The notes under the pieces: generated by a model
Seen by the model: only the letters and a program-made list of their open reading frames with translations
Told to the model about the DNA's origin: nothing
Database searches by the model: none
Translations under genes and position numbers: made by a program
DNA from: Blasia pusilla
Taxonomy: Eukaryota
DNA length: 64,000 nucleotides
NCBI GenBank assembly: GCA_050084515.1
Contig: CM114271.1
Coordinates: 46,190,001 to 46,254,000, forward strand
Direction of reading: 5' to 3'
Shown here: piece after piece, positions 17,050 through 64,000 of the stretch
How positions within the stretch are numbered: the first letter of the stretch is position 1
Layout: each line of letters begins with the position of its first letter

Positions 17050-18020
17050 AGAGGAGGGTGTTAGGGTGTTAGATCTCTTCGGAGGGATTAGCACCGGATT
17101 GGCTGCACTATTGCAGGCGAGCATACGGGTGCATCAGTACCTTTATGTGGAGAGAGATGAGACTGCGCGGCGAGTATCATTACGTCACGTGGCGAGATTG
17201 GTCCAGAGATATCCTGAGTTGTTGCCGGTATCTGCAGTACGGGGATATCAGCATATGCTACTCGCCGACATCTCTTTGGTGGGGGCGTAGGATCTGGATA
17301 GAGTTGGCACCATTCATTTGGTGATTGCTGGATGGCCATGTCACGGTCATTCATCAGTTGGCTGAGGATTTGGATTGCAGGATCCGAGGTCAGGGATATT
17401 TTGGGAGATGCTGCGAGTAGTACAACACTTGCAGGAGAGTCAGATATGTTCTCCAGCGTACATTTTGGAGAACGTGTTGTTGGGAGACACTCGTGCACGG
17501 GATGACGAGTGTACATCAGGTGAGGTCCTGGTTGGGACCTGCTGTATTGTTAGATCCAGCGAGAGTTGGGTCACGTGCCCATCGTCCACGACTGTGATGG
17601 ACGAACCTGATTACCATCAGAGGTACTGAATCGAGCATACGGTGGAGTCCAGAGAGCACCACATCTCATAGTGGATGCTATTTTGGGCTCAGGGCGTCGA
17701 TCTCAAGTGGTGACACGGGATGATAGACCACCGTTGGCCATGGCCAATAGGGTGAGGGAGTTGAGGGCAGCCTTACCTACGTTGGTGAGCTTCCCAGCAT
17801 CCCATGCCTTTCGTCAGGGAGGGCCCGGCATGATTTGGGATGAGGTGACCGGAGCATTGGAGGAGCCTACAGCAGATGAGCACGAGCGCGCCATGGGGTT
17901 CACTACGGGCCTACTCTGGCGGTGCCGGGGATGATCGAGGCATCCAGAGGCAGTGTTGGGGCAGGCGATGGACCTCAACTGTCTCACATGGATAGTCAGC
18001 CTAGGTATGGCTGAGCAGAG
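17050..18020 (+). pseudogene. Element 1 DNMT3-like C5 cytosine methyltransferase domain (disrupted)
   Basis: Motif I VRVLDLFGGISTG; II YLYVERD; IV LVIAGWPC (~17318-17341); VI YILENV; VIII SRAHRPRL*WTNL; IX ERAMGF; X LGQAMDLNCLTWI, all in canonical order. Confidence 0.9.
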
Positions 18021-18148
18021 ATGGATGCGAGTGTCATCCATGCCATCACGTCCATGAGTTGGACCATTGCCTACAGGGTCTGTACAGGCATTGGCTGGGG
18101 GCAAGACAAGGAGAGATAGGCACCCATAGACTTCATGGGACGTCGTTC

Positions 18149-21100: not shown

Positions 21101-23034
21101 GTCTTGAAGGTGGAAGAGCCATCATGCTTGGATGAGGACCTGGCTCATCCTCAATGGAGAGAGGCCATGCAGACGGAGATGGACGCTATTCAAAGAAATG
21201 AAACTTGGACTTTGGTTGAAAAGCCAGAGGACAAGAAGATAATACGCACCAAGTGGGTGTACAAGACCAAGTACAAGTCGGACAGTACATTGGATAAATT
21301 CAAAGCGAGGTTGGTTGCACAAGGATGCTCACAAATCAAAGGCTTTGACTTCTATGAGACTTTTGCTCCCACTGCAAGGATGACAACCATTCGAATTGTT
21401 CTAGCGGTTGCAGGAACAAGACGTTGGCATGTATACTGTACGATGTGAAGTCTGCTTTTCTGAACGGGAGTCTCAAGGAGGAGGTATATGTTTCTCAACC
21501 ACCAGGTTTTGAGACACCCGGATCAGAAGAGAAAGTTTGTTTACTTCATCGAGCATTGTATGGGTTGAAGCAAGCCCCAAGGGTATGGTATCAACGAATA
21601 GATACATTCTTTCGAGAGAAGGGTCTCATGAAGAGTCCTTCAGAAGCAAATTTGTATGTGTTTTGCGAAGATGGGATGTATATATTGATAGTCTTGTATG
21701 TGGATGATCCGATCATCACAGGAGACCCTGAGAAGAAAATAGAGGAAATGAAGGGAGTGTTGGAATCTGAGTTTGAAATGTCGATTTAGGTCTTTTCACT
21801 ACTTTATAGGACTGGAAATTTGGCAACAATCAAATTCTATTTTTCTCTCTCAGCAGAAGTATGCTAGAGAAATCTTGAAGGCATTCGGGATGACCGAGTG
21901 TAAGGCGTGGTCTCGCCAATGGAGGTAGAGTTGAAACTCGATGGAGGATGTTTCACCATTGGTAGATGAAAAGATGTCTGAAAGCTTGTAGGCGTTTGAT
22001 ATTTTTGTGTAACAAGAGACGGACATTAGCTTTGTGGGAGTATTGAGTAGGTTCTCAACTAAGCCTCGTGAGAACCATTGGAAGGCGAGGATGCGTGTGT
22101 TGAAGTACATCAAAGGCACTATCGAGTACGGCATCACCTATGGAGCAGGGACGGAAATTTTTGTGACTCACATTGGGCAGGAGATTCAGATTCTCGAAGA
22201 TCAGTTTTGGGTTATTGCTTCTTGGTAGGATCAGGTGTGGTATCATGGGTCAGCAAGAAGCAACCTACAGTGGCTCTTTCTTCTACCGAGGCAGAGTACA
22301 AGGCGGCTTGTTATGCTTCTTGTGAAGCAGTATGGTTGAGATGGATACTAGAGGATATAGGAGAAGCACCAGAAAGTGCTACTGTAATGTGGTGTGACAA
22401 TCAGAGTTGCATTGCCATAGCACATAATCCTGTGTTTCATGCTCGTACAAAGCACATAGAGATCCAGTACCATTTTGTTCGTGAATTGATCGAGAGAGAG
22501 GTTTTGAAGTTAGTCTATTGTCCAACAGAGGATAACCGTGCAGACATCTTCACGAAAGTCTTGAGCGGAGATCGCTTCACCGACATCGAAGGGTCTTGGC
22601 ATAGGTCCAAGACAAGAGTCCACATGAGAATGGATATTGAGGGGGTATTGGATTCTCAACATCCACTCCTCTGAGCACCATTGATTTGATCGGCCCCCTT
22701 GTATGAGGAGAAGCCTAGATCGATGGTTCCGACTTAGACGTCGAAGGAGTCATAGTAATATGACGTAGGTGGTTTACGGAGTAGCGTTACTAGGTTTATC
22801 TAACCCAAAATTTTTCTATTAATAGAAACAAAGAAAAATAGGTAAAAACCCTAGTTTTCCCGAGTAGTCAAATAGTCGGGAGCCGCAGCGGTAGCGCATT
22901 CTCGTATGTCGAGTTATCTCCCAGTTCAGGTTCCATCGAAGCTCTTCTGTGAGCGCACGGACGGACTAGGCCAATTTGTATCTCTAAGTTTTGTAAAGAT
23001 TTCAGTGATTTAGTCACTTTCTGCTTTTCTCACA
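18149..23034 (+). mobile_element. Full-length but decayed Ty1/Copia LTR retrotransposon nested in element 1
   Basis: LTRs 18149-18542 and 22646-23034 (TA..CA); TSD CGTTC at 18144-18148 and 23035-23039; PBS TGGTATCCGAGC at 18543 (tRNA-iMet-like); purine tract before 22646. Confidence 0.96.
18621..22600 (+). pseudogene. Copia gag-pol polyprotein (frameshifted)
   Basis: CFYCGKLGHLIKDC knuckle; VLDSGASRHM protease; WHERFGHL, VDDYSR and QQNGVVERRNR integrase; LYGLKQAPR and LYVDD RT; TEAEY, CDNQS and ADIFTK RNaseH. Confidence 0.93.
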
Positions 23035-23173
23035 CGTTCGAGCAAAGAGTGCAAAGGCGGCTAGAGTAGCACATGTTCATTTTTCGGATGTGGAGCATGG
23101 TGTGGGAGGTCAGAGTGGAGTGGCTGTTGCGGAGGTGGCTAGGGTTGCTACATAGCAACCAAAGCCGGAGGTT

Positions 23174-26100
23174 GTGTCCTCTCCGAGTGAGGTCACGATG
23201 GAGACTTGGGAGCATGTGATAGGTCTCAAGTTGATAGGAGGAGATCGACGGCGAGTTCATAGGTTTCTGAGAGGGCATTTCAATTGTTTTGCCTTCAGTA
23301 TGAGAGACTTGGGTACGCTGAAGGGTCCCGGGATACGGATTGAGTTGGCTAGTGATATGCCGATCTTTTGTCGACCCTACAGGTATTCTGATATGGAGCG
23401 AGCCTTGATTCAGAGCAGGAGTCAGGACTTGTTGGAGGCAGGACTTGTGGAGTTATCACATGGGGAGTATGCATCTGCCACAGTCATGCCGACAAAGAAG
23501 TATATGTATGGCAACTGGACGGATAGGCGGATGTGTGGAGATTACCATCCTATCAACCGACAGACGAGGTCAGATCGGTACGCTATGCCTACTCCTGAGG
23601 AGATCTTTGATGCGGTAGGGCATGCAAAGATCTTCAGTACTTTAGATCTCCGTGCTGGCTATCATCAACTTCCTATCAGGTTGGAGGACAGGGAGAAGAT
23701 AGCATTCTGGGGGATAGATCGGTTCGGGAGAGATTGCTTGTATCAGTGGCGGTTCTTACCATTTGGGTTGAAGAATGTGCCTGCAGAGTTTCAGAGAGTG
23801 ATGGATAGGATTCTGGCTGGCTTGGATTTTGTACAATGTTACATAGATGATATTCTTATCTTCAGTTCCATGGTTGAGGAGCATGAGCGACACTTGGAGG
23901 AGGTGTTTTGGCGATTGCCGTTACATGGACTGAAGTTATATCCAGGCAAGTGCAGATTCTTTCAGGAGCAGATTGAGTACTTGGGACACACCATATACCC
24001 GAGTGGGTTAGGCGTTCAGCAACGAAGGTAGAGGCTATTGCGCAGATTCCATGCCATACAGATGTGAGTCGAGTCCGAGCATTTCTTGGACTGGCGAACT
24101 TCTATCGACGGTATGTGAAGGGTTTTAGTGTGATCGCAAAGTCTTTGACCTTGTTGACGAGACTTGATCAGGTTTGGTTGTGGGGAGATGATCAAGAGCG
24201 AGCATTTCAGGAGCTCAAGGACAGGTTGACGTCCTCACCCATTTTACAAAGACCGGTTAGGGGTCGCCCATTCCAGTTACATACGGATTGGAGCATGTTG
24301 GGTCTAGGAGCAGTGCTTACTCAGAGAGATGACAAGGAGAGGGAGTTTGTTATGGCTTACGCCAGCCGATCGACCAACATTGCAGAGGCGAAGTACATCT
24401 CCTATGAGGGAGAGTGCTTGGCTGCAGTGTGGGTCGTGGCACATTTTAGGTGCTATTTATTCGGCAACCCTTTCACACTTATCACTGATCATCAGCCGTT
24501 GAGGTGGTTGATGGAGTCCGACAAGCTTACGAGCAAGCTTGCCAGGTGGGCTCTATTACTACATGAGTATGAGTTTGAGGTGGTTCATAGGCCAGGTCGG
24601 CTGAACCAAGATGCGGATGGGTTGAGTCGTAACCCATGTCCGAGTCAGAGAGACGACACATGAGCTCGATGGCACGGAGAGAGTGATGAGGAGATGGTGC
24701 CCGGTTGGCATGCATCTGCCTATCTTTGTTGGTTGACTATGGCAGGTCAGCCACAGGTGATGACTCCACTGGTGGGGTTGGATGATGAGTCTTTGGATCC
24801 GGAGGTTAGTGAGGAGGCGAAAGGTGGTCGTGATATCCATGATGACGTGGAGGTTGTGGAGTTCTTGCGCACTGGCATCATTGCGAGTACAGTGAGTGCT
24901 AGGGGAGCGGATCGAGATCCTCTGAGAGAGCCAAGAGGTTCAGGTGGGAGGGGACTCACATTTTGTGGGTATGGGGAGATGGTAGGATACGAGTGGTACC
25001 TCATCCTTCCCAGCGAGCACGTGTAGTGAGACATGTCCATGAGGAGTTGGGACATTTCGGAGTAAAGCGTACTTACAACTTACTCCAGGTTCAGTATTGG
25101 TGGCGCGGCATGCATACTGGAATACAGCAGTTTGTGGCCAGAGCATCCTTCAATGCTCCCACTCCGCAGTTACATCCTTTTCCGATTATGGGTTTAGGTT
25201 ATCGGTGGAGTTTAGACTTTGCGGGACTTTTGCCATTGACTGGGCGTCATCATAGGTACGTGTTGGTCATGGTGGAGCATTTCTCCAAGTGGATAGAGTT
25301 GGTGGCAATACCAGACAAGGCGAGCGAGGGAACAACTTATGCGTTTCTAGATCGTGTGCTTAGTCACTTTGGTGCACCGGCGGAGGTGTTGACTGACCAG
25401 GGTACCGAGTTCAGGGGAGAGTTTCAGGCCCTGTGTGATCAGGCGCCGATAGATCACCGCACCACGTCCAGAGATCATCCTGAGGCGGATGGGTTGGCGG
25501 AGAGAGTGGAGACGGTGAAGAGAGGATTGCGCAAGTATGGCTTGCAGCAGGGACAGTTGAGGGAGTGCGACCTACAGTTGCCATGGTTGACTATGGGTTA
25601 TCGCTTTAGTCGGCAGGCATCCTTTGCGTTATTTTCATCGTACTTTTTGCTCTTTGGGAGAGAGCCAGATTTACCTGCAGCGATTTGACGTGACGTGGAG
25701 GAGGTGTTAGATCTTGATGATCCAGATGTGTGGGTACAAGCATGTTCTCAGAGGGCAGAAGTTTTTCGTAGAGTTATGCCTATGGCCTTTGAGAACTTAG
25801 CTATTGCCCAACATAGAGATACATTGAGGTACGCGACCATTCGTGGAGGAGGTTATCGTCTAGGGATTAGGAGGTTTCATCATGGAGATGACGTGTATTT
25901 ACAGTAAGCGGCACCCACGACGCTAGATGTCACTGTAGGGCGCACGATCCTACGTGTGCGCGAGGTATTGCCGACCAGAGTCCTCATGTTGGAGGGACGG
26001 GATGGTATGGTTTGGAAGGATCATGTGCGCAATTGTGCGCCATGTCATCTTTGGAACGTAGATGGGACGGTGGATCCGAGCTTGGCAGTGGTACCTGCAG

Positions 26101-26240
26101 GCTTGAGGTGTATGTTGTGCGGATCTGCGAGGGGTGCAGCCACCATGTTGGTATGTGATGGTTGTTCTCGAGGCCTGACCCCCCCTCTTGATATGGTTCC
26201 CACGGGATGATGGATGTGTCCGAGATGTGTATAGGGTAGT
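23174..26240 (+). pseudogene. Element 1 RT, RNaseH, integrase and PHD finger (disrupted)
   Basis: RMCGDY, LDLRAGYHQ, PFGLKN, YIDD; TDWSMLGLGAVL, TDHQPL, DADGLSR; HEELGHFG, SLDFAG, TDQG, GLAER; PHD CMLC..VCDGC..WMCPRC with an internal deletion. Confidence 0.93.
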
Positions 26241-26899
26241 AGGTCATGTTAGAGAGATGTGATATTTTCTATCTGGAGTTGGGAGGATCCAACTGCCAGC
26301 TAGGGGGCGGTTGTGTGATCTCCATGTATATGTATGAGTTGATTTTTGTACATGTGTGGATCGATCCGTGTGTGGGGAAGATCGGTGTTGTATGGTGTAG
26401 ATGTGATGAGCGGTGTATGTTGTGTAGCGATATGTATGCGCACGACAGCTGTCACATCTGAGTAGCCGATAGGCCGAGATCTATCGTGGATAGGGCGTAG
26501 GAGCCAGCGGACTATCTTGAGTGTAACTTTGTCCCATGGTGTCGGATGAGGTTGAGGATAGGTCCATTGTGTCAGGAACGGCGTTTTTGACAACTTTCAT
26601 GTTGAGGTCTTTTACAGTTGGGTGACTTGTTGACCAGGTCATCCGCCCTTGTAACCTCTGGTCAACAAGTCTCAATAGTGGCAGACAATCCACACAAAAA
26701 TTGACTCACACCTACCTCGCAACAAAACTCAAAAATTTGCATAATAGTCGACTTACACAAACCCTCATTTACCATCTAGAAAACTATATCTCTACCAAAC
26801 CATCCGCTTCAAGAGAAATTTTTCAATTTGTACAATGGTCAATCAACACTTGATTGTGCAAGGCCTAAAGCTCCTCACAAAACCCAATATGATTAGTCA

Positions 26900-27180: not shown

Positions 27181-28111
27181 AGCCAAACTTAAATTATAAA
27201 GCCTCATCTAGGAATGGAATGGAGAGGTGCATGCTTGCCTTTTACTCAAAGATCAAATTGCTTTTATGAGAAGGGGAGGAAATAATTTTTCTCGTCATGA
27301 AGAGGTATTCACCCTTGTCTCTCCAATCTTGACATGTTTTATTTCCCAATGTGACATCGATACATCGCAAGAGCATTGTTAATTATAAAAATCTTAAAGA
27401 TGTGTCAAGAAGTTTAAGAAACTCAAAAAGATGGAGATTTTCAAGATAAACAATTGTAAAAATTAGTGGAACAAAATGAAGGCTCCATATAAATATTCAA
27501 CCATTAATCTATTATAATGCTATGAAATAATTATGATCATGGGATAATTGGCTCTATTTTCTATGATTATTTCAACATAAACTCCAATCATTTACACTTC
27601 AATGGGTTCATCTATACTATTTTTTCATTTTATTAATACATGAAATAATGATAATTATATTAATTTTTAACCAAAATGTTATCCAATTATTCATTCTAGG
27701 TGTAGTATGTGACTTACCGACCTCCATTTCATATTATCCCCAGCCCTGAAGGCCTAAATCTGATTTCCAAGCATTGCATATTTGATTTTCCAGTTTATTT
27801 AGAATCTTTTTCATATAGAGGGAATGAATCTGAATAAAAGGAAAGTCTTAAAGAAGAAATTTGCACTTCCATTGAAAATAGGAAAATTAAGTAAGACTCG
27901 CCAAAAAAGTCCACACCACCTACTATAAAAATCAATTATCAACAAGATCAAAATAAAATATAAAGACATGTATCAACTAGGCAATCTATACTTTTAATGG
28001 TAGATAGCTTCTTGAATTGTGAGAGCCTCTTTACTTAACACTACAAAAATTTGTATATAATAAAGGCTATTTATTTATTTTTATTTACTTATTTACTTTT
28101 CTCATAGAAGA

Positions 28112-29882
28112 GCCTTTTGGGATCTTTCCCTCTACGATTGACATCGTCTCATTGCCTTCAGGAAAATGTTTGAAATATCTTCATACAACCTATCCACAGA
28201 TACTCCACCCATCATTCTCCATTCAGGGTCTTTACAACCTCTATATATATCACTACGGTTTTTGGTTCTCCACATACATGTGCACTTTGCCCACCATTCT
28301 CCTTTCAAGATTCAGTCTCTCATGTGTATGATTTTCTTTCCTTCTAAAAGGGGCCACATGTTGGTATCGTTTAAATGATAGGTTTAGGGAGACCATGTAA
28401 CTCCTTTATTTACAGGAGAAGTTTCTTGCTTAGAATCCATTTGGTTCTACATTTTATTGCACTATATTTAGGAAGAAAACTCTAATAGTCCGATAAAATA
28501 AGGATGGGAAAAGTCTTCTTAAAATTTTTCAATTTGTTATATTCTCTTGATTGGACTTTTTGCATCCCAATTTTAGCACTTATTCTGCATTTCTAGTCTC
28601 CTTCCCCTCTTGATTGACTGTTGGTTTTTGTTTTCCTCTTAAGATGTTTTCATATTTACGACTTTCAATCATTCAATCCTAAAAAGTCCATAAAGAGAGT
28701 GAATGTATCAAACATACCTCATATTGACTAATGATTAACGACTCGTGAAATTGGCTTTCTTTATAAAGCTAACATGTTTTTTTAGGAAAGTTTCCTTGAA
28801 ATCCTAAAGTTTTGTGAAATTATTGAGAGGAAATAAGGGATTCTAATGTTTTACACAAATATAAATATAATTTAAAATAAAAATATTTGTATTTAACATC
28901 TCCAAAACTACTAATTATCCGTACTACTCTGACAACTTGATTTTTTTGTAAGAGAAGGTGCTAGCATAACCTTTTTCTACACTAGTAACTTCTTATGATT
29001 AAGGACGGGTCTAGTAGTATATGCAAATATCGAGGAATTTTCTCCTTGAGATCTATTTTTTATAATATTAAATTTTTTATTTTTTCTCTAAAAATAATTA
29101 GTTGCATAAGGATTAAATCAAAAGATAAGAGAAGCGCCTTCCTTAAAACTATCATTTAAAAGGATACCAACATGTGGATTTTAGGATTTCAAGGAAAATT
29201 TCCTAAAATGTACATGTTAGCTTTACAAAGAAAGTCAATTTCACGGGTCATTAATCATTAGTCAATATGAGGTATGTTTGCTACGTTCACTTTCTCTTAT
29301 GGACTTTTTAGGATTGAATAATTGAAAGTCATAAATATAAAAACATCTTAAGAAGACAAGGAAAACCAAAAGTCAATCAAGAGGGGAAGGAGACTAGAAA
29401 TGCAGGAAAAAATGGTAAAATTGGAATGCAAAAAGTCCAATCAACGGAATACAAAAAATTGAAAAAGTTTAAGAAGACTTTCCCCATCCTTATTTCATCA
29501 GACTATTATAGTTTTCCTTCCTAAATATAGTGTAATAAAATGTACAACCAAATGGATTCTAAGCAAGAAACTTCTCGTGTAAATAGAGGAGTTACATAGT
29601 CTCCCTAAATCTATCATTTAAAAGGATACCAACATATGACCCCTTTAAGAGGGAAAAAAAATCATATAAGTAAAAGACTGAATCTTGAAAGGAGAATGGT
29701 GGGCGAAGTCTATATGTATGTAGAGAACCAAAAACCACACTTATATGTAAAGAGGTTGTAAAGATCATGAATGGAGAATGATAGGTGGAGTCTATGTGGA
29801 TAGGTTGTATGAAGAGATTTCAGACACCTTACCGAAAGGCAATGAGATGAAGTCAATCGTAGAGGGGAGGATCCCAAAAGGC
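28112..29882. mobile_element. Foldback / long-TIR non-autonomous element with ~700-bp inverted arms
   Basis: 28112-28808 is a diverged reverse complement of 29180-29882; AT-rich ~370-bp spacer; no ORF; TSD not resolved. Confidence 0.85.
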
Positions 29883-30929
29883 ACTTATGTGATCGATCCC
29901 TCAGATGTCGTGCGCCTACTCTCCTTGAACGTTAATCTTGTTTGTTGCGGAAGCGTGCGTTCAGTAGGTCACGCTCTCAACGTTGATCTGCATCCAAACA
30001 TGCACTTCGGTTAGTCGGGTCTTGGATCAATCAGCGGGATTACTTTCCGAGTTCTCGTCTCGGACTCTCTTCAAGCTCAACCTTCCTAGTTTTGCGGTTT
30101 CCAACACGGGCAAGTCTCGAAAGACTTGGGACAGACTTTCTGGTCGGTTCAGGAACTTGAAACGGCGTTTCGCGCCTAGCGCTTCCAACTGTCCGATGAA
30201 CATCCAATGAGTTCCTCACCAAGACTCGCACAAAGTGAATCTCGGGTTGGAATCCAAGTGTGGCATACAAAGTCCACTCTCTTGGATCAGGTTTGGGTTT
30301 CGGGTTTCCGCGCCAAACTCCCGTTCCATCCCGTGCCTCTAAAACGCCGTTTGGCGCCCAAAGTGGGGTTTCGTTTCCCGAGACATCTCAGAGAAGGTAC
30401 TTCCCTTACTAGTACTTCTGGGGATCTCCGGGGGCCCCCTACATTTAGGGAAAGACACCCGGGCCTCTCCAATTGGCCCTCAACCCGATTGCTCTCTCAA
30501 TCGTTTTCGGCCAATATCTCAGCCTGTACTTATGCGTTTGCTGAGATCTTTGGTGCGTTGGAAGCGTCTCAAGATCAACTTTTGAGAGTTGTTCGAGTTG
30601 GATGTGGTGCTCTCAAATGTGAGCATGTGTGCACAGTCCGGTGTACATACATGTGAGGTTGAATTGGATGCGATGATAGGTGAGATTTTCCACCAAGTGT
30701 AGGGCAGGAAAAGTGAATTTTATATGATGATCCCCCGTTTATACATCTACCTCGCGTTAGGGTTCAGGAAGTTAAGAGGGAAACATGTTAGGAGCTAGTT
30801 CCCTTTTTGTACTTTTGATAGATTTTCTCATACCCATTGTTCACCTTATAACCTACCTATATGCAAAATGATTTCTATTCCACGGGCAGCAAGAAAAAAC
30901 ATTTGCATGGAACATGATTAGTATTCACT

Positions 30930-51400: not shown

Positions 51401-52740
51401 TTGGAGGGAGGACTAAAACCCATTGTGGAAAGAGTAATAGGAGATACCATGTATTTATATCTGTGGGGTCACGCGCTAACCTTTCTAATGGGAATAGCAA
51501 AGCTTGTTGGGTGATGGGGCGAAGAGCAATAGGAATGCGAGTGTAGAGTCTAGGACGAGGAAGACATGGATGGAAAGAGCGAAGGAGATCAATTTGGCTT
51601 AACCAGGTCCAAGCAATTGTTGTGGGGAGTGCAGTAGGAGTTGGTATCGGGTTAGGGATTGAAGGCCCATGCATGGATCGACAGTACCGCTGGTGTCTTT
51701 TGATCCCATTAGGAGCAAAGTCCTTACCACAAGGTATGCAACGAACCTTTGGTACAAGTGGAGAAGTAGAAGGGTTACAAGGAGAGGAGGTGGGAGGTGC
51801 AAGAGGTGGTGATGGCCGACAATGAGGGGGTATAAATAGGTTGGGGAAGGAGGAGGAGGAAGAGGGGAGATTCGGGTAGAATAGATGGGAGTTGGAAGCA
51901 AGGGCATCGATGAGATATGTGGGGATGGCAAAGTAGAAGGATTCGGTTATAATGGATCAGGATTAGGCTCAAGGCGAAGAAGGGAGAAGAGGAGAATCCG
52001 GAAGAAATGTAGTGAGTGTAATGGGTGTATTAGCATCTGGAGGAAAATGGCGAGATCGACGATGAGGAGGTGAACCAGGGGGAGAGGTTACGGTTGTAGG
52101 AGGGCGTATTAAACTAGATAAGCGAGTAGATGGATAATCCATCTCTGATGACATAGAAGTAAAGGTAGGCAAGTCTCCGAAGACAAGAAAAGACATACGA
52201 AACGTGGTTTGGAGAAAGCATGAGGATAAAGAACAAAGCAAAAGTAGTGGAGAGATGAAGATTAGGCAATACCGAATTTATGATTGAAAGTTACTATAAG
52301 AAAAATATAAAAAGTAATTGAAAAGGAAAAGTGATGGATATGGTATCGAAAGAGGTGGCTCAAGAATATGAATTTCTAATGTCCTAAACATATGTAGGGA
52401 CGAAACAATAAGGTAAGGAGTTGAAAGAGCAAGGAAGACTTTTGGGAGGAATTGACCTAAAACAAACCCGTACACAAAAATAGGCGCCTACAAAGAAGGA
52501 AGAAAAACTAGAAAACCTACTTGATATCAAAAGAATGAGCTCGTCAAGACGATCGAAACAGGGCCAAATACGCCCAAAACCGACATTCGAGAAGAAAGTT
52601 ATGAAAGAAATTGGAAACACCGAAAAAGAGGATGTGGGGAGTAAGTGAGCCACCCACCAATGACCGCTATGAGGGAATGAGTTCGTAATGTTGGGCCCAG
52701 CCCGTATGAAAAGATCCAAAAAAGCAAGAGGAATCCCTTA
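48500..52740 (-). mobile_element. CRE-like non-LTR retrotransposon with zinc finger, RT and restriction-like endonuclease (frameshifted); outer boundaries approximate
   Basis: CIPCGKDFAPNGIKRHQRYC at ~51683-51742; GVRPLAIGE, HQFGV, DVANAFNS, QDDPMG, IADD; C-terminal CVCG..H..C knuckle; DVVVADP..FVPFAVEVFG in ORF 48719-49267. Confidence 0.85.
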
Positions 52741-53057
52741 AACCGATGTGTCACGTCTTTTAGGATAGATCGATGGGATCTAATAGAGCGCCTTCATGAG
52801 TAGTGGAGGACACGCCCAGTAGGTCAAGGGTGACCTGCTGAGGCCCTTGGAAACCTGAGATGGCAGGTTTTCCCTTCGTTTCGGTTCATTTGGAGCCATA
52901 TTGAGGAACTTACTATTTTAGGTAAGTACCATTTTGAGTATATGATCGACTTACTATTTTTGGTAAGTGGCCTTTGACCTCCTACATCAGGTCAAGAGCC
53001 AAGGAGGTGACTTGGGAGAATAGGTTACCATGGAGAGAGCTTGGGAGAGGAGAGGGG

Positions 53058-53277
53058 TATACCTCAAGGAGAGAGAGCTTGAGAGCTCATTCTCTCTTTG
53101 TTGAACCTCTTGGCATGAGGCGGCGGAGCTATGGTACCTTGCCTTGTGAGTGTAACCCAAGCCTCTCATTAGGAGAGTGGGTTTGGTTTGACATGAGAGA
53201 GAGTGCACACCTTTGAGAGCTATGGTGTGAGATGGTGGAGAGAGAGATTGGATCTTACTTTACAAAGAGAGAATGAG
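53058..53277 (+). promoter_or_regulatory. TATA-like site, predicted transcript start and self-priming PBS of element 2
   Basis: TATA at 53058. CTCATTCTCTCTTTGT 53086-53101 is the exact reverse complement of ACAAAGAGAGAATGAG 53262-53277. Confidence 0.8.
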
Positions 53278-53854
53278 AGAATGAGAGAGTGAGAGAGCTT
53301 CATGGGGGAGCTCGCGGGTCACTCGCTGTTTTTGCAGGTTGGGGACCGTGTTTCCCGTTCAGCCGCTCATGGGAGTGCTCACCGGAGCAAGGGCTGCTTT
53401 CATTACTCTTTGCATTTGCCGATGTTTCGTGTGGAAGAGTGGCGCGCGGAAGCGCTGCCCAATTTCTGATAGGGATTGAGTATGGGCGCGGGTTGCCCAA
53501 TGCTGGTGCTCTTGGGAGCACCATGTAGCTTGCTGATATGTATTTTTACAGATGTTACATTTTCGTTGGGAGAAATCAGCGCGGGAGCGCTGCCGAATTT
53601 TGTGTAGGAGAAAGAGACATTGGGCTTTACGACAGTCCCCGTCAATTTTTACTGAAATGTTCGATTTTAAATATTTTTTGATGGTAGCGTAGATTGTGAA
53701 GCTGTGCATGCTGTGCAACAAACAGTGCACAATTTAGAGTTGCGAGCAAAAAGTTATGGGCAATCTTGTAAAGCTGCCATTGCTAGGTGATTTTTAGGGT
53801 TAAATCGTGCAAACCCTAAATCAGCCGCCACACCGGCGGCGGCCGTCGCCATCA

Positions 53855-53980
53855 TAGTCACCGTCAACGGTCGACGGTCAACCGTCAAAATCAACAGTCA
53901 ACCGTCACAATCAATAGTCAACCATCACCGTCGACGGTCAACCGTCACTGTCAAGGGTCCACCGTCCATTGTCCACCGTT
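53855..53980. repeat. Short degenerate ACCGTCA/GTCAA repeat tract in the 5' leader of element 2
   Basis: Many accgtca, acggtca and acagtca units. Confidence 0.75.
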
Positions 53981-55079
53981 TGGGTGCCATTGCCGCCATT
54001 ACGGAGTGGAGGGTCTTCCATGACGTTCGTTGATTCCTTGATTTGCGTCGCCACCACGTACTTTGTTTTTGGCCGCCACCGTCATCGCAGTTTCTTCATC
54101 AACCAATGAAGGCAGATGACCTCCGGTTATGGTGTTTGAGTTTTGATTTCATGCTGCTATGTTGTGATTGGTAGCCGCTCGACGACGATCGAGTATCGTG
54201 CCGTGACGCCCGTAGCCGCAACGCGCGCCGCCGATTGCAGCCGCGCCGTGCGCTCGTGGCACACCGCACCATCTCGTCGCGAGCCGCACCGTCATTGTGG
54301 AGCGAGTGTGGGATTATTATTGATTGAGGAGGGTATGCGCCGAGTGCCGCATCCCACCATCGAGGGCCATGCCGTTCAGAGCCGCGTGCGCCGCTGCAAC
54401 GCCGCACCGTTCATTGGGACCGCACTGTCTATCGAGGAGTTTTGAGCAGCATGAGTATGGGAGGAGTATGACTTGCTGATTGGAGGAGTTGTCTCCATGA
54501 TCAAGTTGGGGTCGAGATTTGCAGTTGCTGAGGAGCGACATCGACATGTGTTCGAGTTACCCATTTCGGTCCTTTACCCCGCACGTGTGAGGGATTTAGG
54601 ATTTATTTGGGGATATTGGGTGTGTGGATCGAGAGCATCATTTATGTATGTGGTTTAGGGGACATAGACCTGTGTGGGATGTCCGGAGTTGAGGGTAGGT
54701 TGTCGATGAGATGATAGCCTGGTCGATTTGCCGCACCCCGCCGCATGTTTCCGCACGTTACACGTCTCGGGGAGAGAGAGTGTAGATCGAGTGCCGCATG
54801 TTTGGGATGAGTGATTGAGGGATTCCTCACGAGGTTGAGTGATCGGGTGAGAGGGGCACGAGGGTCATCACGAGTCTGCTCGGGACTTTGAGAGGCGAGG
54901 TGGTGAACCCGAGAGTAGCTCTAGAGGTTTTACGCGGAGTGGCGCGAGGTTTCGAGGGTCTCCACGTGAGGGACCACCTCGACCTCCTTCTGTGTCATCG
55001 TCAGACAAGGGGGAGGGTGTAGAGGAGTTTGTGAGCACATCGCCACACATTGTGAGTGGTCCTACCGGTTGGGCGTTTG

Positions 55080-57400
55080 AGATGGAGGACCGGGGTAGAG
55101 GACCGCGAGGTTTTCAGGATCTGATGAGGGCACGATTGAGTTGCACGATTTTATAGCGAGTTTAGGAGTTGGTGCGACTCCCGGTAGGCCAAGAACTCTA
55201 GAGAGTTCAACCCATTTACAGCATGGAACGGTATGTTCCAGCATTTAGAGGGGGCGCCCATGGACGATTACCATGAGTTCTCTCAGAGATATGCATGTGA
55301 GATCGAGGCGTGGAGGCTCTACTATGACCCACATTATATGTCATGGACGGAGCCGTTCCCAGATGAGGAGGAGGAGTCAGGAGAGGCTACTACCTCTTCC
55401 ACTAGTGACGTTTTAGGAGGGTCACTCGACGACGGAGCAGCGATTGCACCGTCTAGTCGGGTTCGCCCCAGGTTCAACCCCGTGGTTGAGTTCTTTCTTT
55501 GAGTTGAGGGCGAGCTACCAGGGGGTACGGACGGAGAAGTTGCGGAGCATCCACGACTTCCAGAGGCGCTCGGGTGAGAGTTTGCGTGAGGCTTACACTC
55601 GCTTGCGCCGGTTGATCAACATCACTCAGGGGGTGACAGAGGCTCAGGCTATCTAGTCATGGTATGCGATGTTGGACCGGACCCTGCGGACACAGGTGCG
55701 GGAGGGGGTGCTTCTTATGAACACCTCCCCTACGTTGAGAGATGTTTTTAGGACCGCCGAGAACATTGAGCGCAACATGGCGGAGGAGAGCGTAGCCACC
55801 ATGGGTTCTGGGCGAGAGCAGCCACGATTGTCCGCACCACGTGCAAAGAACGTGGACTCCGAGATAGTTCGACTGTGGCACCACGAGCTCAGGGAGGATA
55901 CCGAGAGGCCGTGCCACAGAGACCTGCGCCTTCATATGCGGCTCAGCAGCAGCCGCCTACTATTACTTGTCGGTCATGTGGTGGAGCCCATCATCAGCGC
56001 GATTGCACTCGTCAGGGTCATGGACGTGTGCCTCAAAGATGGAGGAGGAGATGGTCTTTGCACCAGGAGGTTATCAGTGTGACTATTGTCGAGGTATGGT
56101 CATACACGCGCCAGGTGTTTTAGTTTACATCCTGAGTTACGCCTGGACCGAGGGCGAGAGGGCACCAGAGCGAGTAGCCGGTCCGGGTGGGCCTAGAGAT
56201 CGTGCTCCAGGTGGTCCCGTTGGGGGACGAGGAGCTGGAGTTGCCCGACAGGGTGGTGGAGTTGCCCATGGAGGAGGTAGAGTACCACCACCTAGACGCG
56301 CCGAGGGAGATGCCGGACGTGAGGCTGGGATGGCTGCTCAGATACAACAGCTACAGGAGCAGATTGCCGCTATGGCATTGAGGTTACCCGATGCCGGATC
56401 CGTGGCATCGACATCATATGGAGCAGCCAGAGATCTAGAGGATCTGGATGGATGTGCGGGGTTGCCCAGATGGAGGCCGCCGCAGTTGTGACGCGTGGAG
56501 CAGCCACAGAGTTGGATCCATAGCAAGGGGAAGCTAGTAGACAGACTAGGCTTCCTCAATCTTTCACGTTGTCCGAAGCGATGAGGACCCCATCGATGGG
56601 TCCTCATCAAAGTTCCTGGAGAGTTGGTAATGTTGTTGGTGTGCAAGCACGGAGGGCGATGGGAGAAGCGAGTGTGACGACTCCTATTGTTGATGCTCAG
56701 GAGGGGCATGTGTCGAGCACGTTGTTGGGGGCGGCCACCGTTGTGTACCGCACTCCTTTATTTTCTCGCTTCCGATGTTGTGCGTTGGGAGGTACGCCCG
56801 CCGAGGGGCTGGCCGCTTCACTATGTGAGCGAGTTGGAGTTCTGCATCACGTCGTGAGGTGATTGCAGAGGAGGTGATGGACCTGCCCTTGGAGCGGATG
56901 CCGGGCCGCCCACGTCATATTCATGGCAGTCGCGGGTCGCTAGGATGGCGAGATGCCTGCTAGACCCGCAATAGAGCGTGCCATGGCTTCTCCTGGTGTT
57001 GTGTTGCTGGATAACCGAGGAGAGGTCTTCGGTTGGTGAGTCCTCGGAGGTAGAGCTTTTAGTCCGCAAAGACGTCTTGTTGGATTCAGGAGCGCAACCC
57101 TTGATGTTGGGGAAAGCGTCATTGAGGATTGGGCTTGACGAGAGCCGATGTGGAGTGTTGTCCATTTCGGATCTGAGACATCCTTGGGTGGAGCGAGTAG
57201 TACCACAATATATCACCCGACATGAGGTCGTGGTGAGGATTCGCCGGGACATCCTGAGATGAGTCCGTAGCGCGCCAAGGCGATAGTGGATCGATCCGAG
57301 TCCTACGACGTCTTGGTTGGTGGAGCGATGTTATACCCGATGGGGTTTTCCCTGGATTCTTGGGAGGAGTCGTCCTATAGACCAGGATGGCGTCGGTGAT
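55080..57400 (+). pseudogene. Element 2 gag and protease (disrupted)
   Basis: MFQHLEGAPMDDY, FQRRSGESLREAY, CRSCGGAHHQRDC, LLDSGAQPLM, YDVLVG. Confidence 0.8.
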
Positions 57401-57779
57401 GGGCGCCTTAGCTCATTACCCGTTCGATTCACAGTGCGATGATCGAGCAACGGCCTGGAGAGATGGCGACCTTAGCAGCATTTAGCAGTGCCATCACTTG
57501 GCCTAGTGATTTGATTGAGGGACATGTCCATGCAGAGGATACTCCCGTTCTTGACATTTCTATGGAGAGGAGTGTTATGGTAGCCTGCATCATTCTGGTG
57601 GAGGAGAGGTGCACTGTGGGGCTCGGACCGAGGAGCTTCAACGATTGGATGATGCGACACGCGCACCGCATGGAGCGAGGCGTTTGCACCAGAGCGTGAC
57701 GGGTCTGAGGAACCCGAGGTAGCGGGGAGTGCTACGATGACACCCTTGGATACTACACCCATTGTGTGGTGTACCCGGA

Positions 57780-58731
57780 GGAGGGTATTCGAGTGTTAGA
57801 TCTCTTTGGAGGGATTAGCACCGGGTTAGCTGTTGTTTTGCAGGCAGGAGTGCGAGTACAGCAGTACTTATATGTGGAGAGTGATGATGTTGCAGGCGCG
57901 TCTCACTACGACATGTGGCGCAATTACGCCCTCGTTTTCCCGACTTATTGTGTGCGTCCGCAGATCTGGTACCGAGTTCCCTACCGAGGATATTTTGTTG
58001 TTGGGGGGCGCAGGACTTAGAGCGGTAGGGACCATTGATTTGGTCATTGCCGGTTGGCCATGTCAGGCCAATCGAGTCCGGACGAGGCGGCGGGTTGGTG
58101 ACACTCCATCCGGTTGTTTCGGGAGATGTTGAGGGTCTTACGGCGATTCTGGAGCACCAGTCTCGTTCTCCGGCCTACATTCGGAGAATGTGCCGATCTT
58201 AGAGACTCAGTCACGGGTCGTGACGAGTGCTCATCAGGTGCGTGCCTGGATCGGCCCAGCAGTGTTCTTGGATGCGGCGAGTGTAGGTTCTAGAGCCCAT
58301 CGCCCGCGTCTATGGTGGACCAACTTGGTGCCCCATGCGGTGTTATGGAGGGCGTATGCGAGAGTGGAGCGCCCCTCCCCTTTGTTAGTGGATTCCATTC
58401 GGATCCAAGTCGCCGATCACAGCGGTGAGGCACGATGATCGACCACCGCCGATCGTGGGTCACGGGGTAGGCAGGCCGTGGCGCCTTGCCCACGTTTGTG
58501 AGTTTTCCTGCTTCCTATGCATACAAGGAGGCCGGTCCTGGCTTGGTTTGGGATGACCAGGTTCAGCGGTTGGTGGAGCCCAACGCCGACGAGAGAGAGC
58601 GAGCGATGGGATTTCCCACAGGAGTGACGGCAGTACCATCAGTGTCAGAGGCATCACGACGCCATGTCTTGGGTCAGGCGATGGACCTGAACTGCTTGAC
58701 ATGGATCCTTAGCTTGGGAGTGGCTGAGTAG
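57780..58731 (+). pseudogene. Element 2 DNMT3-like C5 cytosine methyltransferase domain (frameshifted)
   Basis: GIRVLDLFGGISTG; YLYVE; DLVIAGWPCQ; ENV at ~58184; GSRAHRPRLWWTNL; ERERAMGFPTGVT; LGQAMDLNCLTWI. Confidence 0.92.
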
Positions 58732-59058
58732 TGTCGTATGAGATCGCGACAGATCACAACGGTTGCGTTGGTGAGCCCCATGCCTACCGAGACGGTGGAG
58801 GAAGTGGCTAGGGGCGAGACCCGAGGAGATCTACGCACCATGGGAGATCGGGAGAGACACCCTTGGACTTCTTGGGATGTTTTGAAGGTACGCAAGGAGA
58901 TGATAGCCACAGCATTGAGCGTGGTTTCGGGCACTGCACGTGGAGGAGATCAGAGTTTGCAGTTGGCTGTAGGAGAGCGGCCGAGTGTTGTTGTTCGAGA
59001 CGGGGTTGCACCATAGCAACCACCGATACCCGCGCCGGAGAGTCCTACCGTAGTCACG

Positions 59059-62000
59059 ATGGAGACTTGGGAGCTAGATATGGGCCCTAAGTTGACAGGA
59101 GGAGAGCGGCGCCGAATACATCAGTTCCTCAGGAGTTATAGGAGCTGCTTTGCGTTTAGCATGGAGGATTTGGGTACGCTGAAGGGACCGGGGATCCGCA
59201 TTGAGTTGTCGAGTGATATGCCGATCTTCCGACGACTCTATAGGTACAGTGATATGGAGAGGGCTCTGATTCACAGTAGGAGCCAAGACTTGGTCGGAGC
59301 AGGACTAGTGGAGATGTCGCATGGGGAGTATGCATCTGCCACTGTCATGCCCGCCAAGAAGGATGTGCATGGCAACTGGACGAATAGGCGGATGTGTGGG
59401 GATTACCGACCTATCAATCGGCAGACAAAGTCCGATAGGTATGCCATGCCCACCCCTGAGGAGATCTTTGATGCGATTGGTCACGCAAAGGTCTTCAGTT
59501 CATTGGATTTTCGAGTTGGATACCATCAGCTGCCTATCAGATTGGAGGACAGGCAGAAGACGGCATTTTGGGGCATCGATCCTCACGGGAAGGATTGTTT
59601 GTACCAGTGGCGGTTCTTACCATTTGGGTTGAAGAACGCCCCGGCTGAGTTTCAGAGGGTCATGGATAGGATCTTGGCTGTTCTGGATTTTGCTAGGTGT
59701 TATATTGATGACATCGTAGTCTTTAGCGCCACGGTTGAGGAGCATGAGCAACATCTAGAGGAGGTGTTTCGACGATTGCAATTACATGGGCTGAAGCTAC
59801 ATCGAGGCAAGTGCAAGTTCTTCTACGACCAGATTTAGTACTTGGGTCATACGATATACCCAGGGGGCCTTGGTGTTCAGCAGACAAAGGTAGAGGCTAT
59901 CTCACGCATTCCACGCCCTACAGATGTGAGCCGTGTTCGCGCATTCATGAGATTGGCGAACTTCTATCGGCGATACGTCAAGGGATTGATTCGAATGGGC
60001 GCTGACCTTGCTCACCAAGGTGGATCACGAGTGGCACTGGGGGGATGAGCAGAGCGAGCATTTCGATTGCTCAGGACGAGTTGACATCCGCACCCATCTT
60101 GAGGAGACCGATCGGGCGTCCTTTCCGATTGCACCTGATTGGAGCATGTTGGGGCTTGGAGCGGTGCTCACCCAACATGATGATGAGGGTAGAGAGTTTG
60201 TGGTGGCTTACGCTAGCCGCTCGAACAACGCCGCAGAGGTAATCACTCGTATGAGGGTGAGTGCTTGGTGCGGTGTGGGTCGCGCATTTCATGTGTTACT
60301 TATTCGGCAACCCCTTTACCATCATCACTGATCATCAACCACTGAAGTGGTTGATGGAGTCCGACAAGCTTACATGGAAGCTTGCGAGATGGGCTCTGTT
60401 GTTGCAGGAAAATGATTTTCAGGTGGTACATAGACCTGGAACGCTCAACCAGGATGCAGATGGGTTGAGTCGTAACCCATGCCCGAGTCAACGAGATGCG
60501 ACTGGAGCTCGATGGCATGGAGAGAGTGGTGAGGAGTTGGTGCCAGGATGGCACGCGTCAGCCTATTTAGGCATGTTGGCTATGGAGAGCCAGAGTGTGG
60601 AGACTTCGATGGTGAGGTCTAGTGGAGAGTCTTTGGATCCCGAGGCCAGTGAGGACACGACAAGTGGCCGAGATATTCATGATGATGGAGTAGTCTTGGA
60701 GTACCTTCGTACTGGCAGCCTTGCAAGCACCATGGATGCTAGAGAGCGGGATCGGATCCTACAGCGGGCCAGACGGTTCCGTTGGGAGGGGACACATGTT
60801 TTGAGGGTTTGGGAGGATGGCGAGTACGCGGCGAGTGCCGCATCCTTTGCAGAGAGCACGACTAGTGCAGCATGCCCACGAGGAGTTGGGTCACTTTGGG
60901 GTGAAGCGGACATATAGCTTGCTCCGATTCAGTATTAGTGGCGAGGCATGCAGACCGGCGTTCAGCAGATTTGTTGCCAGGTGCATGGTGTGTGATCGGG
61001 TCCGAGCATCGCGTTCAATGCTCCGACTCTACGCGATTGCATCCATTACCGATCATGGGCTTAGGATATAGATGGAGTTTGGATTTTGCAGGACCTTTGC
61101 CCTTGACGGAGCGTCCACGATCGTTATGTGTTGGTGATGGTGAGCACTTCTCGAAGTGGATCGAGTTGGTTGCATTGCACGACAAAGCAAGTGAGGGAGT
61201 AGCTTATGCCTTCCTTGACAGAGTCTTTGAGTCATTATGGCGCACCAGGTGAGGTGTTGCTGACCAGAGTGTACCGAGTTTATTTGTGAGTTCCAGGCCT
61301 TGTGTGATCGGGCGTTGATCGACCACCCGACGACTTGCGAGATCATCCTGAGGCGGATGGATTAGCGGAGAGAGTTGTGCAGACGGTGAAGAGGGTTTAT
61401 GCAAGTATGGCTTGCAGAGAGGTCACCTAGAGATTGGGACCTTGGTTGCCATGGTTGGCGATGGGATCTGATTCAGCAGGCAGGCATCCTTAGCGTCTTT
61501 TTCACCGTACTTGCTACTTTATGGCCGAGAGCCAGATTTATCTGCGGCCATTCGTCGAGATGTTGGTGAGGTGCTGAACCTTGATGACCCAGATGTATGG
61601 GTGCGAGCATGTTCTCAGAGGGTTGAGTTATTTCGGAGAGTGATGCCCATGGCGTTCGAGAACTTGGCGATTGCACAGCATCGGGATACGTTGAGGTATG
61701 CGACTATTCGAGGTGGTGGTTATCGATCAACTATCCGGAGGTTTCATCAAGGAGATTATGTCTATTTGCAGCAGACGGCACCGACGACGTTGGATGTGAT
61801 TGCAGGGCGCACTATCCTGAGAGTGCGTGACATTTTGCCATCGGGTGTTCTCTTGCTAGAGGGACGCGATGGTATGGTATGGAAGGACCATGTGCGTAAT
61901 TGTGCGCCATGTCACCTTCCTAACATTGATGGTACAGTAGATCCGAGCTTAGTAGTAGTTCCTGCAGGCTTGCGTTGTATGTTGTGTGGTTCTGTCCGTG

Positions 62001-62125
62001 GTGCGGCCACGATGCTAGTATGTGATGGGTGTTCGAGAGGATGGCATATGGCATGTTTGACGCCACCTCTCACTAGGGTTCCTCATGGACAATGGATGTG
62101 TCCCAGATGTACATCGAGAAGGTAG
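59059..62125 (+). pseudogene. Element 2 RT, RNaseH, integrase and C-terminal PHD finger
   Basis: RMCGDYR, PFGLKNAP, YIDD; DWSMLGLGAVL, DADGLSR; HEELGHFG..CMVC, SLDFAG, GLAER; intact C4HC3 CMLC..CDGC..WHMAC..WMCPRC. Confidence 0.94.
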
Positions 62126-64000
62126 TTCTACATTCTGACTTGTGTCTATGACATGGATGACAAGGAGGCGACTAACGATGGGGCCACATGAGCACCCGGC
62201 CTTCTTGCTCTTAGCGTCAGAGATGTATGTCATGGTAGGTAGGGATAGATGGCTATCCGGAGTTAGAGGACCTAACCACCAGCTAGGGGGCGATTGGAGA
62301 TATTTTGGTTCTTCTTGTCTCGTTGTTTGGATGCCATGAGTTGCATGGGATCATGCGTGTTTTGTGTGTGTTCGGTGTGACAAATGATGTATGTTGTGTA
62401 GCGATGTGTATCGCACGGCGGTATCACGTCTTTTAGGATAGATCGGTGGGATCTAATAGAGCGCCTTCATGAGTAGTGGAGGACACTTGATGGAGGTCAA
62501 GGGTGACTGCTTTGAGGCCCTTGGAAATCTGAGATAGCAGGTTTCCCCCGTTCGGCTCATTTGGAGCCATATTGAGGAACTTACTATTTTAGGTAAGTAC
62601 CATTTTGAGTATATGATCGACTTACTATTTTTGTTAAGTGGCCCTTGACCTCCTACATCAGGTCAAGAGCCAAGGAGGTGACTTGGGAGAATAGGTTACC
62701 ATGGAGAGAGCTTGGGAGAGGAGAGGGGTATACCTCAAGGAGAGAGAGCTTGAGAGCTCATTCTCTCTTTGTTGAACCTCTTGGCATGAGGCGGCGGAGC
62801 TATGGTATCTTGCCTTGTGAGTGTAACCCAAGCCTCTCATTAGGAGAGTGGGTTTGGTTTGACATGAGAGAGAGTGCACACCTTTGAGAGCTATGGTGTG
62901 AGATGGTGAAGAGAGAGATTGGATCTTACTTTAATTGGAGATATTTTGGTTCTTCTTGTCTCGTTGTTTGGATGCCATGAGTTGCATGGGATCATGCGTG
63001 TTTGTGTGTGTGTTCGGTGACAGCGATGTATGTTGTGTAGCGATGTGTATGCGCACGACAGATGGTAACCCGGCATCACTCTATAAGGAGAGCGCTATGT
63101 TTGAAATTGCGTATAGGAATCTATGAGCACATTTAGGAGAGAAGGAGGTCCAAAGATCCCAAGAACTTTGGAAATCTCAATCTTAAGTGGGAAAAAGAAG
63201 AACCCAAAGTTCAAGCTTGAGAAGATGAACACATTGGGCCTTAAATTGAAAAGATTGGATCACCATGGAAATAGTTACAAACAAAATTCTAAACGTCCGC
63301 CATAGTCCTCCTCCTCTTCCTCCATTCCACTCCTCAAATTCCTCTATTTTGTGAGTCAAGCATGTGTTGATTATGAATTATCATGGATGAGTCATGATCA
63401 ACACATGCTTGATTTCCAAATAAGGGTATTTATATTTAATTCCATGCATGCTATATACTCCTTTTTAAAATTTACAATATGTTCTATTGAAAATATTTAA
63501 GTCATTCTTTATGAGCCAAAATAAAAAAATCTTAAAATAGCTCTTTTTATGCCATACTTCCAAAAAACCTTTGTGGATTTATGTCTCTTGACGAACCATA
63601 AGAAGTATGTAGGAAAATTATTGGAAACACTTAGCAAGAAAAGCATTATCTACCTAGTGAGATTGAATATGTAATTTTGGATAATTAAAACAAATATTAG
63701 AATTCCAGAAAAATACTTTAGATGTAAAAAAATATAAGAAGTTTTAAAAGAGAAATATTTTTTCCTGTTAACATTATTCACAAAATTATGCCACTTGATG
63801 GAGAAATACTTTTTATCATTTGATTGAGAGATAATGAGAGTTAGATCGATAAGAGATTTTATTGATGCATATTATTGCACAACATCAATTATTATTAATA
63901 TTTTAATTAAAAATTTATGATTTTATCATTCAAAAACCTTTGAGTTTGAAATTATTTTTCAATGAGAATAAATATAAATTTATTACATATTTTACAAAAA

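Follow-up and report, generated by a model that had tools for sequence, protein, structure and literature searches.

We analysed a 64,000-nucleotide (nt) stretch of the Blasia pusilla genome (GenBank assembly GCA_050084515.1, contig CM114271.1, positions 46,190,001 to 46,254,000 of the forward strand; hereafter, the window) and found at positions 52749-63060 a decayed Ty3/gypsy-type retrotransposon, element 1, that has a DDE integrase and a DNMT3-like domain and whose terminal repeats are split into two parts, A and B, in the order A1-internal-B1-A2-B2. As a first-pass annotation of the same letters had proposed, what was inserted is a circularly permuted BA-internal-BA complementary DNA (cDNA), with TG..CA ends and a 4-bp target duplication. 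From the layout, the ends, the duplication, the protein domains and the positions of the primer sites, we infer a cycle in which the long terminal repeat (LTR) is B+A, the element's own transcript would prime reverse transcription, and the integrase would act at a B|A site inside the LTR on joined cDNA, most likely a 2-LTR circle. We put the probability of this reading as a whole at about 58%. A second, diverged copy (element 2) and a third, broken copy lie in the same window, and related loci, labeled L, were found on metagenome contigs. All features of these window copies given below are on the plus strand, except the third copy.

Repeat finding and pairwise alignment set out the order of the repeats in element 1. 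Repeat A1 (52749-53262) begins with TGTCAC, has a TATA-like box at 53058 and a predicted R-U5 segment inside it, and is not preceded by B; it is directly followed by non-B sequence, with no B between it and the internal region (53278-62282). At the other end, B1 (62293-62421, which takes in a degenerate B|A spacer) is followed by A2 (62422-62933) and B2 (62934-63060; 127 bp, last bases CACGACA), with the end of A2 directly joined to the start of B2. The A copies agree at 509 positions and differ at 21 (96.0% identity outside gaps), and the B copies agree at 132 and differ at 7 (95.0%), so that the equal divergence of the two pairs fits a single origin in time for all four repeats. The tetranucleotide GATG stands on both sides of the element, at 52745-52748 and at 63061-63064.

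The ends were placed with an empty-site test, for which two contig sets (X1 and X2) and two raw whole-genome read sets (X18 and X19), all bearing the same species label, were aligned to positions 52000-63800 at 90% likeness. A joint from 52744 to 63061, which skips 10316 bases and has four letters shared by both sides, appeared in three of the four sets, with 2 contigs in X2, 65 reads (59 starts) in X18 and 74 reads (62 starts) in X19, and was not found in contig set X1. Depth was approximately 120 to 180 over the flank, compared with approximately 1000 to 2000 across element 1. Because the flank is itself a repeat, these joints are paralogous empty sites, i.e., copies of the flank that were never hit by the element, and they carry one GATG. 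They fix the inserted DNA as exactly 52749-63060, accompanied by a target duplication of 4 bp. Thus, the alignment and the paralogous empty sites bear out the A-internal-B-A-B order, the terminal TGTCAC and CACGACA, and the GATG flanks that the first-pass annotation had given. The repeat that served as target DNA covers 52000-52748 and 63061-63425, and depth was zero past approximately 63425.

The A2|B2 joint at 62933 was crossed by approximately 1310 reads in X18 and approximately 1290 in X19, and about 37% of these reads were without one base at 62933. This cover and the length variation mark the joint as a family feature, not a local misassembly. That B2 arose by local duplication or misassembly had been named beforehand as a case that would overturn the permuted layout, and we weighed it, together with a partial second insertion as the source of B2, as one reading in which the element is a conventional LTR element. 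This reading has in its favor that B2 is just 127 bp long and sits at the extreme end of the element, and that standard LTR elements are much commoner. However, we find it scarcely credible, because the paralogous empty sites remove exactly A1 through B2 with the 4-bp duplication, some 1300 reads per run span the joint, the A and B pairs are equally diverged, and the same A|B joint recurs in the third copy, in L014 and in L011-13.

Another joint, from 62342 to 62984 (641 bases skipped, approximately 340 reads), was considered as a B1xB2 deletion form and rejected. Its offset is the exact distance from B1 to B2, so that reads of the family merely switch between the two B copies. At 56901-56950 and at 60137, 500 to 600 reads per run depart from the reference with an agreement of 0.88 to 0.92, which suggests that element 1 differs there from most members of the family by insertions or deletions.

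The primer sites define the replicative LTR. A polypurine-tract (PPT)-like sequence, CTAGGGGGCG (62283-62292), adjoins B1, and an exact CTAGGGGG is found 10 to 13 nt before the start of B in nine of the ten internal B copies, L004 being the exception; this position is kept even between lineages with little other DNA in common. At the opposite end of the internal region, a primer binding site (PBS) of the self-primer type (53262-53277) adjoins the end of A1 with a 1-nt overlap and is the exact complement of a segment inside A (53086-53101) at which the transcript is predicted to start. Because the PPT adjoins B and the PBS adjoins the end of A, U3 runs from the start of B and U5 extends to the end of A, making B+A the replicative LTR and BA-internal-BA the expected linear cDNA. 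Both the B+A LTR and the location of the PBS at the end of A1 had been called correctly; a PBS of the transfer RNA (tRNA) type did not hold up, and a self-primer-type complement stands in its place.

In the chromosome, the element opens with the first letters of A (TGTC) and closes with the last letters of B (GACA), and these termini form a 7-nt imperfect inverted repeat, TGTCRTG. Inside the B+A LTR, the two ends meet as ...GACA-NN-TGTC..., a palindrome-like arrangement with the same form as the LTR-LTR junction of a circle. The spacer between them was AC or GC in reads of the family (approximately 483 X18 reads in seven joint rows), GC in element 2 and AC in L014. The joint in element 2, GACAG|CTGTC, is a 10-bp palindrome, and that of element 1 is degenerate (CACGGCGG-TATCAC). 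All three of the 3' A copies have B before them with a spacer of 1 to 2 nt. The other joint, A2|B2, at which the end of U5 meets the start of U3, agrees to within one base between element 1 and L014 and appears 1 to 3 bases shorter in L011-13 and the third copy, as judged against related copies only.

These ends invite a different delimitation, namely, that the true LTR is A+B (TG...CA) and that the copies are conventional AB-internal-AB elements in which rearrangement removed the B at the 5' end and placed another B internally. The canonical TG..CA termini with their inverted repeat fit it, as does the resemblance of the B|A joint to the circle junction of an A+B LTR. It is very improbable, however, given that A lies next to the internal part with the self-primer site directly after it and without a preceding B at all seven 5' ends (two in the window and five loci), that the conserved PPT adjoins B and not A in nine of the ten copies, and that the same arrangement recurs across lineages just 56 to 76% alike and is hence no single-copy accident.

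The self-primer complement was scored in each copy against 300 shuffles, counting those that reached its score. Element 1 has a 16-nt match (53086-53101 with 53262-53277; 0/300 shuffles), element 2 a 12-nt match (2/300), L003 a 22-nt match with 1 mismatch (0/300), L014 a 22-nt match with 4 mismatches (1/300) and L004 a 10-nt match (7/300), and weak matches were seen in L008 (18/300) and L005 (154/300). A PBS of this type was thus significant at the end of A in five of seven copies. The complements begin -1 to +2 nt from the end of A, and the matching segment inside A begins 19 to 31 nt after the TATA motif. The primer sequence varies between lineages, and the pairing is maintained. When the leader was folded from starts chosen by us, the segments were predicted to pair in both the minimum free energy and the centroid structures (z = -3.7 and -3.8). 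This pattern suggests that the minus strand may be primed in the manner of Tf1, by the element's own transcript.

We also considered a tRNA-type PBS candidate, TGGGGGAGCTCGCGGG, located 39 nt past A1, of which only the run of five G residues is common to element 2 and the L loci. It was rejected because the bases after the run differ, whereas a tRNA site would be conserved. The GGGGG run itself lies at 53303-53310 in element 1, at 12319-12323 in element 2 and approximately 40 nt past the end of A in L003, L004, L008 and L014. In every lineage it is kept 10 to 40 nt beyond the self-primer site, with differing bases around it, and it resembles the G run of the PPT.

Element 2 has 76% DNA identity to element 1 over the region from the reverse transcriptase (RT) to the integrase and is arranged as A'-internal-PPT-B'-GC-A'. 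Its A' (11821-12302; 482 bp) begins with TGTCAC, has no B before it and is followed by the self-primer complement at 12303-12314. The internal region (12303-26299) encodes DNMT3-like, RT, RNase H and H2C2+rve integrase parts, and the 3' part (26300-26660) consists of the PPT (26300-26310), B' (26311-26447), the GC spacer and a second A' (26450-26660) that is cut off. The third copy (8390-8867, minus strand) has A'' from 8867 down to 8420, directly joined to the start of B'' (8419-8390), after which it is broken; it represents a solo A-B or else a fragment of a 3' end.

A protein-guided scan of metagenome contigs yielded 17 loci with 56 to 72% RT identity, 13 of which carry A- or B-like DNA. 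A scan of viral_contigs with the RNase H open reading frame (ORF) found no relative. Where loci had a flank in common, they entered the counts as one (L002 and L003; L011, L012 and L013). The order of element 1 recurs in L014 (68% RT identity), which reads A1 (3556-3882)-internal-PPT-B1-AC-A2-B2 and 88% identity in both repeat pairs, and L011-13 also carry the A|B joint. By contrast with these, L003, L004 and L008 are whole elements with a single 5' A and a single 3' B (A-internal-B), flanked by the duplications TACA/TACA (L003), GGTA/AGTA (L004) and TACA/TACA (L008). Among the eight distinct 3' ends, six read PPT-B-flank, one reads PPT-B-A-B-flank and one reads A-B-flank behind an internal deletion. 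The A..BAB ends expected in other copies were thus found in L014, and the majority of distinct 3' ends did not have them, which the first-pass annotation had not foreseen. Conventional LTRs, the other finding that had been set down in advance as decisive against the permuted layout, were absent from all eight distinct 3' ends and from all four relatives with both ends in view. On these alignments, the split-repeat layout is a trait of the family, shared by element 2, the third copy, L014 and L011-13. With respect to target sites, TACA is shared by two independent A-internal-B copies (L003 and L008), and the 3' flank of L011-13 starts with TACC; this may reflect a weak target preference in a very small sample.

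In the cycle that we propose, the plus strand would be primed at the conserved PPT adjoining B, and the minus strand would be primed next to the end of A by Tf1-type pairing with the predicted 5' end of the transcript. The integrase would ignore the ends of the B+A LTR and act on the palindrome-like B|A joint within it, probably nicking after CA on both strands, 2 nt apart, to leave recessed CA ends like those of ordinary 3' processing. Cutting of palindromic LTR-LTR junctions has been described for retroviral integrases (PMC1180852, PMC1905944). Integrated copies would then run from the TGTC that opens A to the GACA that closes B and be flanked by a 4-bp target duplication. A replication-competent A-internal-B-A-B copy would require a substrate in which the end of A was already joined to the start of B, most likely a 2-LTR circle, or head-to-tail joined cDNA, opened by the integrase at one B|A site. 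Copies of the A-internal-B form could be produced directly, by cutting at both B|A sites of the linear cDNA or at the single site of a 1-LTR circle, or they could be secondary, left by a B1xB2 deletion or, from the mirror product, by an AxA deletion. Having no 3' R, they should be dead on arrival. The circular intermediate invoked by the first-pass annotation is therefore partly supported, with the permutation and the marks of DDE integration present in the DNA and the circle being what we infer from them.

Several observations weigh against this cycle. Neither circular nor extrachromosomal DNA was observed. The mirror product A-B-A-internal-B, which a symmetric 2-LTR circle should yield as well and whose absence the first-pass annotation had not anticipated, was seen at none of the seven 5' ends, as against four copies of the B-A(-B) type, and the circle-derived form is a minority in the relatives, as the six PPT-B-flank ends indicate. 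Primary A-internal-B products and deletion derivatives look alike in these data. The target duplication of L014 is blurred (possibly AATG), and the first 9 nt or so of its A1 have diverged. The transcript start is a prediction from the TATA box, and the two 5' copies with weak self-primer matches, L005 and L008, are both decayed. All copies encountered are decayed by stops and frameshifts, so the activity of those seen is historical.

Part of this evidence is what a scheme without a ligated circle would predict. The integrase would act on the two internal B|A sites of linear BA-internal-BA, A-internal-B would be the main product, and the rarer A-internal-B-A-B copies would come from tandem-LTR cDNA made by RT template switching or by extended strand displacement on a circular replication intermediate. 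The preponderance of PPT-B-flank ends in the relatives, the three complete A-internal-B copies with 4-bp duplications and the missing mirror product all agree with it. However, an A-internal-B copy without a 3' R could not be reverse transcribed again, and the lineage would still have to pass through copies containing B-A. The A|B joint was covered by approximately 1310 reads, compared with a mean of approximately 790 in the bin with the A-to-PBS boundary, indicating that the A|B form is not rare in the species of the window. These depths do not translate into numbers of A-internal-B and A-internal-B-A-B copies or into a copy number. In addition, B1xB2 or AxA deletion would convert either product of a circle to A-internal-B, and the joining of the end of U5 to the start of U3 would fit no known step of RT. 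We therefore regard linear integration as a serious but unlikely alternative to the joined-cDNA cycle.

The internal region of element 1 has many stops and frameshifts, and its Pol parts follow the Ty3/gypsy order of RT, RNase H and integrase with H2C2 and rve (DDE) domains. The RT lies at 59017-59838 (RVT_1, E = 1.3e-27), and RNase H is in two frame pieces at 59990-60917 (RT_RNaseH and RT_RNaseH_2). The integrase (60805-61470) has an H2C2 zinc domain (60805-61071; Integrase_H2C2, E = 1.2e-8) and a decayed catalytic core, and is followed by its C-terminal part with a PHD finger (61472-62125; PHD, E = 2.5e-11), which is shortened in element 2 (25908-26207). The core piece of element 1 has no Pfam match of its own and is 76% identical in DNA to element 2, whose ORF matches rve; element 2 matches RVT_1, RT_RNaseH, H2C2 and rve in all, as does L008. 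These matches, with rve taken from element 2, uphold the original call of a DDE-integrase gypsy. No gag- or protease-like part of the element 1 internal region had a Pfam match. The leader of element 1 holds, at 53854-53966, four overlapping copies of a tandem unit of 20 nt that resembles GTCAACCGTCA.

Upstream of the RT, a DNMT3-like cytosine methyltransferase region lies in pieces at 57709-58731 in element 1, with LDLFGGISTGL and AGWPCQ motifs in the translations, and at 16970-17931, also decayed, in element 2. Neither the DNMT-like pieces of the two window elements nor the upstream ORFs of L001, L004, L006, L008 and L014 had a Pfam match. A 106-amino-acid piece from element 2 had DNMT3A as its best match among solved structures in PDB (E = 0.011) and had 64 homologues (E up to 5e-36), many of them with PF00145. 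The domain was above the cut-off in two homologues, P0013 and P0042. The DNMT3-like identity of the window pieces thus derives from the homologues that carry the domain, not from a Pfam match of the pieces themselves. The named homologues of the piece are from Calypogeia, Marchantia and Sphagnum; PF00145-bearing homologues are common in the gene sets of these genera, where some are annotated as ordinary proteins. Intact database relatives combine PF00145, PF00078, PF17917/19, PF17921, PF00665 and PF00628 in one protein.

The domain content also bears on whether the element belongs to the DIRS/Ngaro/PAT type, which would integrate as a circle by site-specific recombination with a tyrosine recombinase. 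The order A1-internal-B1-A2-B2 is the defining repeat structure of Ngaro as described in PMC8547959. Against this, the check for a tyrosine recombinase with hidden Markov models that had been recommended at the outset gave no Phage_integrase match in 50 sequences (35 ORF pieces from the window, 10 from the loci and 5 proteins from the database), and PF00589 was listed by none of 48 relatives. With H2C2 and rve integrase domains and 4-bp target duplications present instead, such an origin is hardly conceivable.

Compared with other systems, the element departs from the Ty3/gypsy pattern in its repeats, in that two identical terminal LTRs are lacking in element 1 and L014 (A-internal-B-A-B) and in L003, L004 and L008 (A-internal-B), while TG..CA termini with a short duplication and a PPT and PBS adjoining the repeats are present. 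The first-pass annotation knew of no DDE-integrase gypsy with this layout, and here it was mistaken. KnitGypsy-Dnmt3 of Klebsormidium nitens, a green alga, has DIRS-type repeats (A-coding-B-A-B) with Gypsy domains according to the Fig. 4c legend of de Mendoza et al. (2018; PMC5890265), and it shares with the present family a Gypsy-type Pol with a Dnmt3-type methyltransferase and the A-coding-B-A-B repeats. Element 1 thereby adds a member to a layout noted once before. The host differs, the nearest named homologues being liverwort and moss proteins, and Klebsormidium was not among the named homologues or relatives of the family. Section 9 and the Fig. 1e and 4c legends of PMC5890265 mention neither PPT or PBS positions nor a target duplication, a palindrome at B|A, a PHD finger or copies of the A-internal-B form, some of which its supplements may hold. 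A 2026 preprint mentions "streptophytes (Gypsy-DNMT3)", and beyond these two sources, we found no further literature report of a split layout with a DDE integrase. The mechanistic anatomy described here for the family appears to be new.

The Ngaro/PAT elements described in PMC8547959 are alike in having split direct repeats, A1-[ORFs]-B1A2B2, with solo AB repeats, and in a topology in which a tandem-LTR circle is opened at the B|A joint. They differ in using a tyrosine recombinase, whereas an H2C2+rve integrase, TG..CA ends and 4-bp duplications are found here. Elements of the Tf1/Sushi group and the Tcn1 clade typically have ordinary identical LTRs and a chromodomain at the C terminus of the integrase; the present family, in contrast, has split repeats and a PHD finger where chromoviruses carry the chromodomain. 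As for priming, the family may resemble the self-priming Tf1/Sushi and plant Tcn1 elements described by Neumann et al. (2019; PMC6317226), as it has no tRNA-type PBS and a U5-adjacent sequence that complements the 5' end of its own RNA as predicted from the TATA box. Retroviral 2-LTR circles likewise have a CA-NN..-TG palindrome that integrase cuts in a restriction-like manner to yield ends that can be integrated (Delelis et al. 2005, PMC1180852; 2007, PMC1905944). In retroviruses, however, the palindrome arises only after ligation of the ends and the circle is mostly a by-product, whereas here each LTR contains a copy of such a junction, and ligation makes a separate joint (A|B), which, unlike the ligated retroviral junction, is not palindromic.

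In the accepted view, LTR retrotransposons and retroviruses insert linear cDNA by its ends, with circles regarded as by-products, and a circle-as-precursor model has been abandoned for retroviruses. The chromosomal copy of the split-LTR family cannot be the linear cDNA, yet it shows the marks of DDE integration. It would thus offer a natural test system for whether the regular substrate of an integrase can be an internal palindromic junction in joined cDNA. The co-occurrence of the layout with a DNMT3-like domain and a PHD finger, matching the one earlier report, suggests a coherent, widespread lineage. More tentatively, and with rather less than even confidence, we propose that a DDE retrotransposon lineage across bryophyte-like plants built a copy of the circle junction into its LTR and depends on joined cDNA, 2-LTR circular or head-to-tail, which its integrase opens as a restriction enzyme would. 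If so, the circle-as-precursor model would have a functioning example in nature, the lineage would have converged on the DIRS/Ngaro topology with a different enzyme, and most of its insertions, those of the A-internal-B form, would be dead on arrival.

The layout also has consequences for annotation. Programs that detect LTR elements by a pair of identical terminal repeats will set the ends of split-LTR elements wrongly or miss them, and A-internal-B copies have no terminal repeat at all. Because the family is abundant in the species of the window, with a depth about ten times that of the host repeat, the annotation of bryophyte-like genomes may be affected.

Other repeats were also seen in the window. 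An element with terminal repeats at 18149-18542 and 22646-23034 (92% identical) is nested in element 2 at approximately 18149-23034 and, from its translation only, is copia-like, with a YVDD motif and integrase-like parts before the RT. An inverted repeat at 28102-28808 and 29180-29892 has 713-bp arms with 88% identity, approximately 370 bp apart. Finally, a palindrome-like 314-bp match lies at 2924-3237, and tandem repeats are found at 4149-5221.

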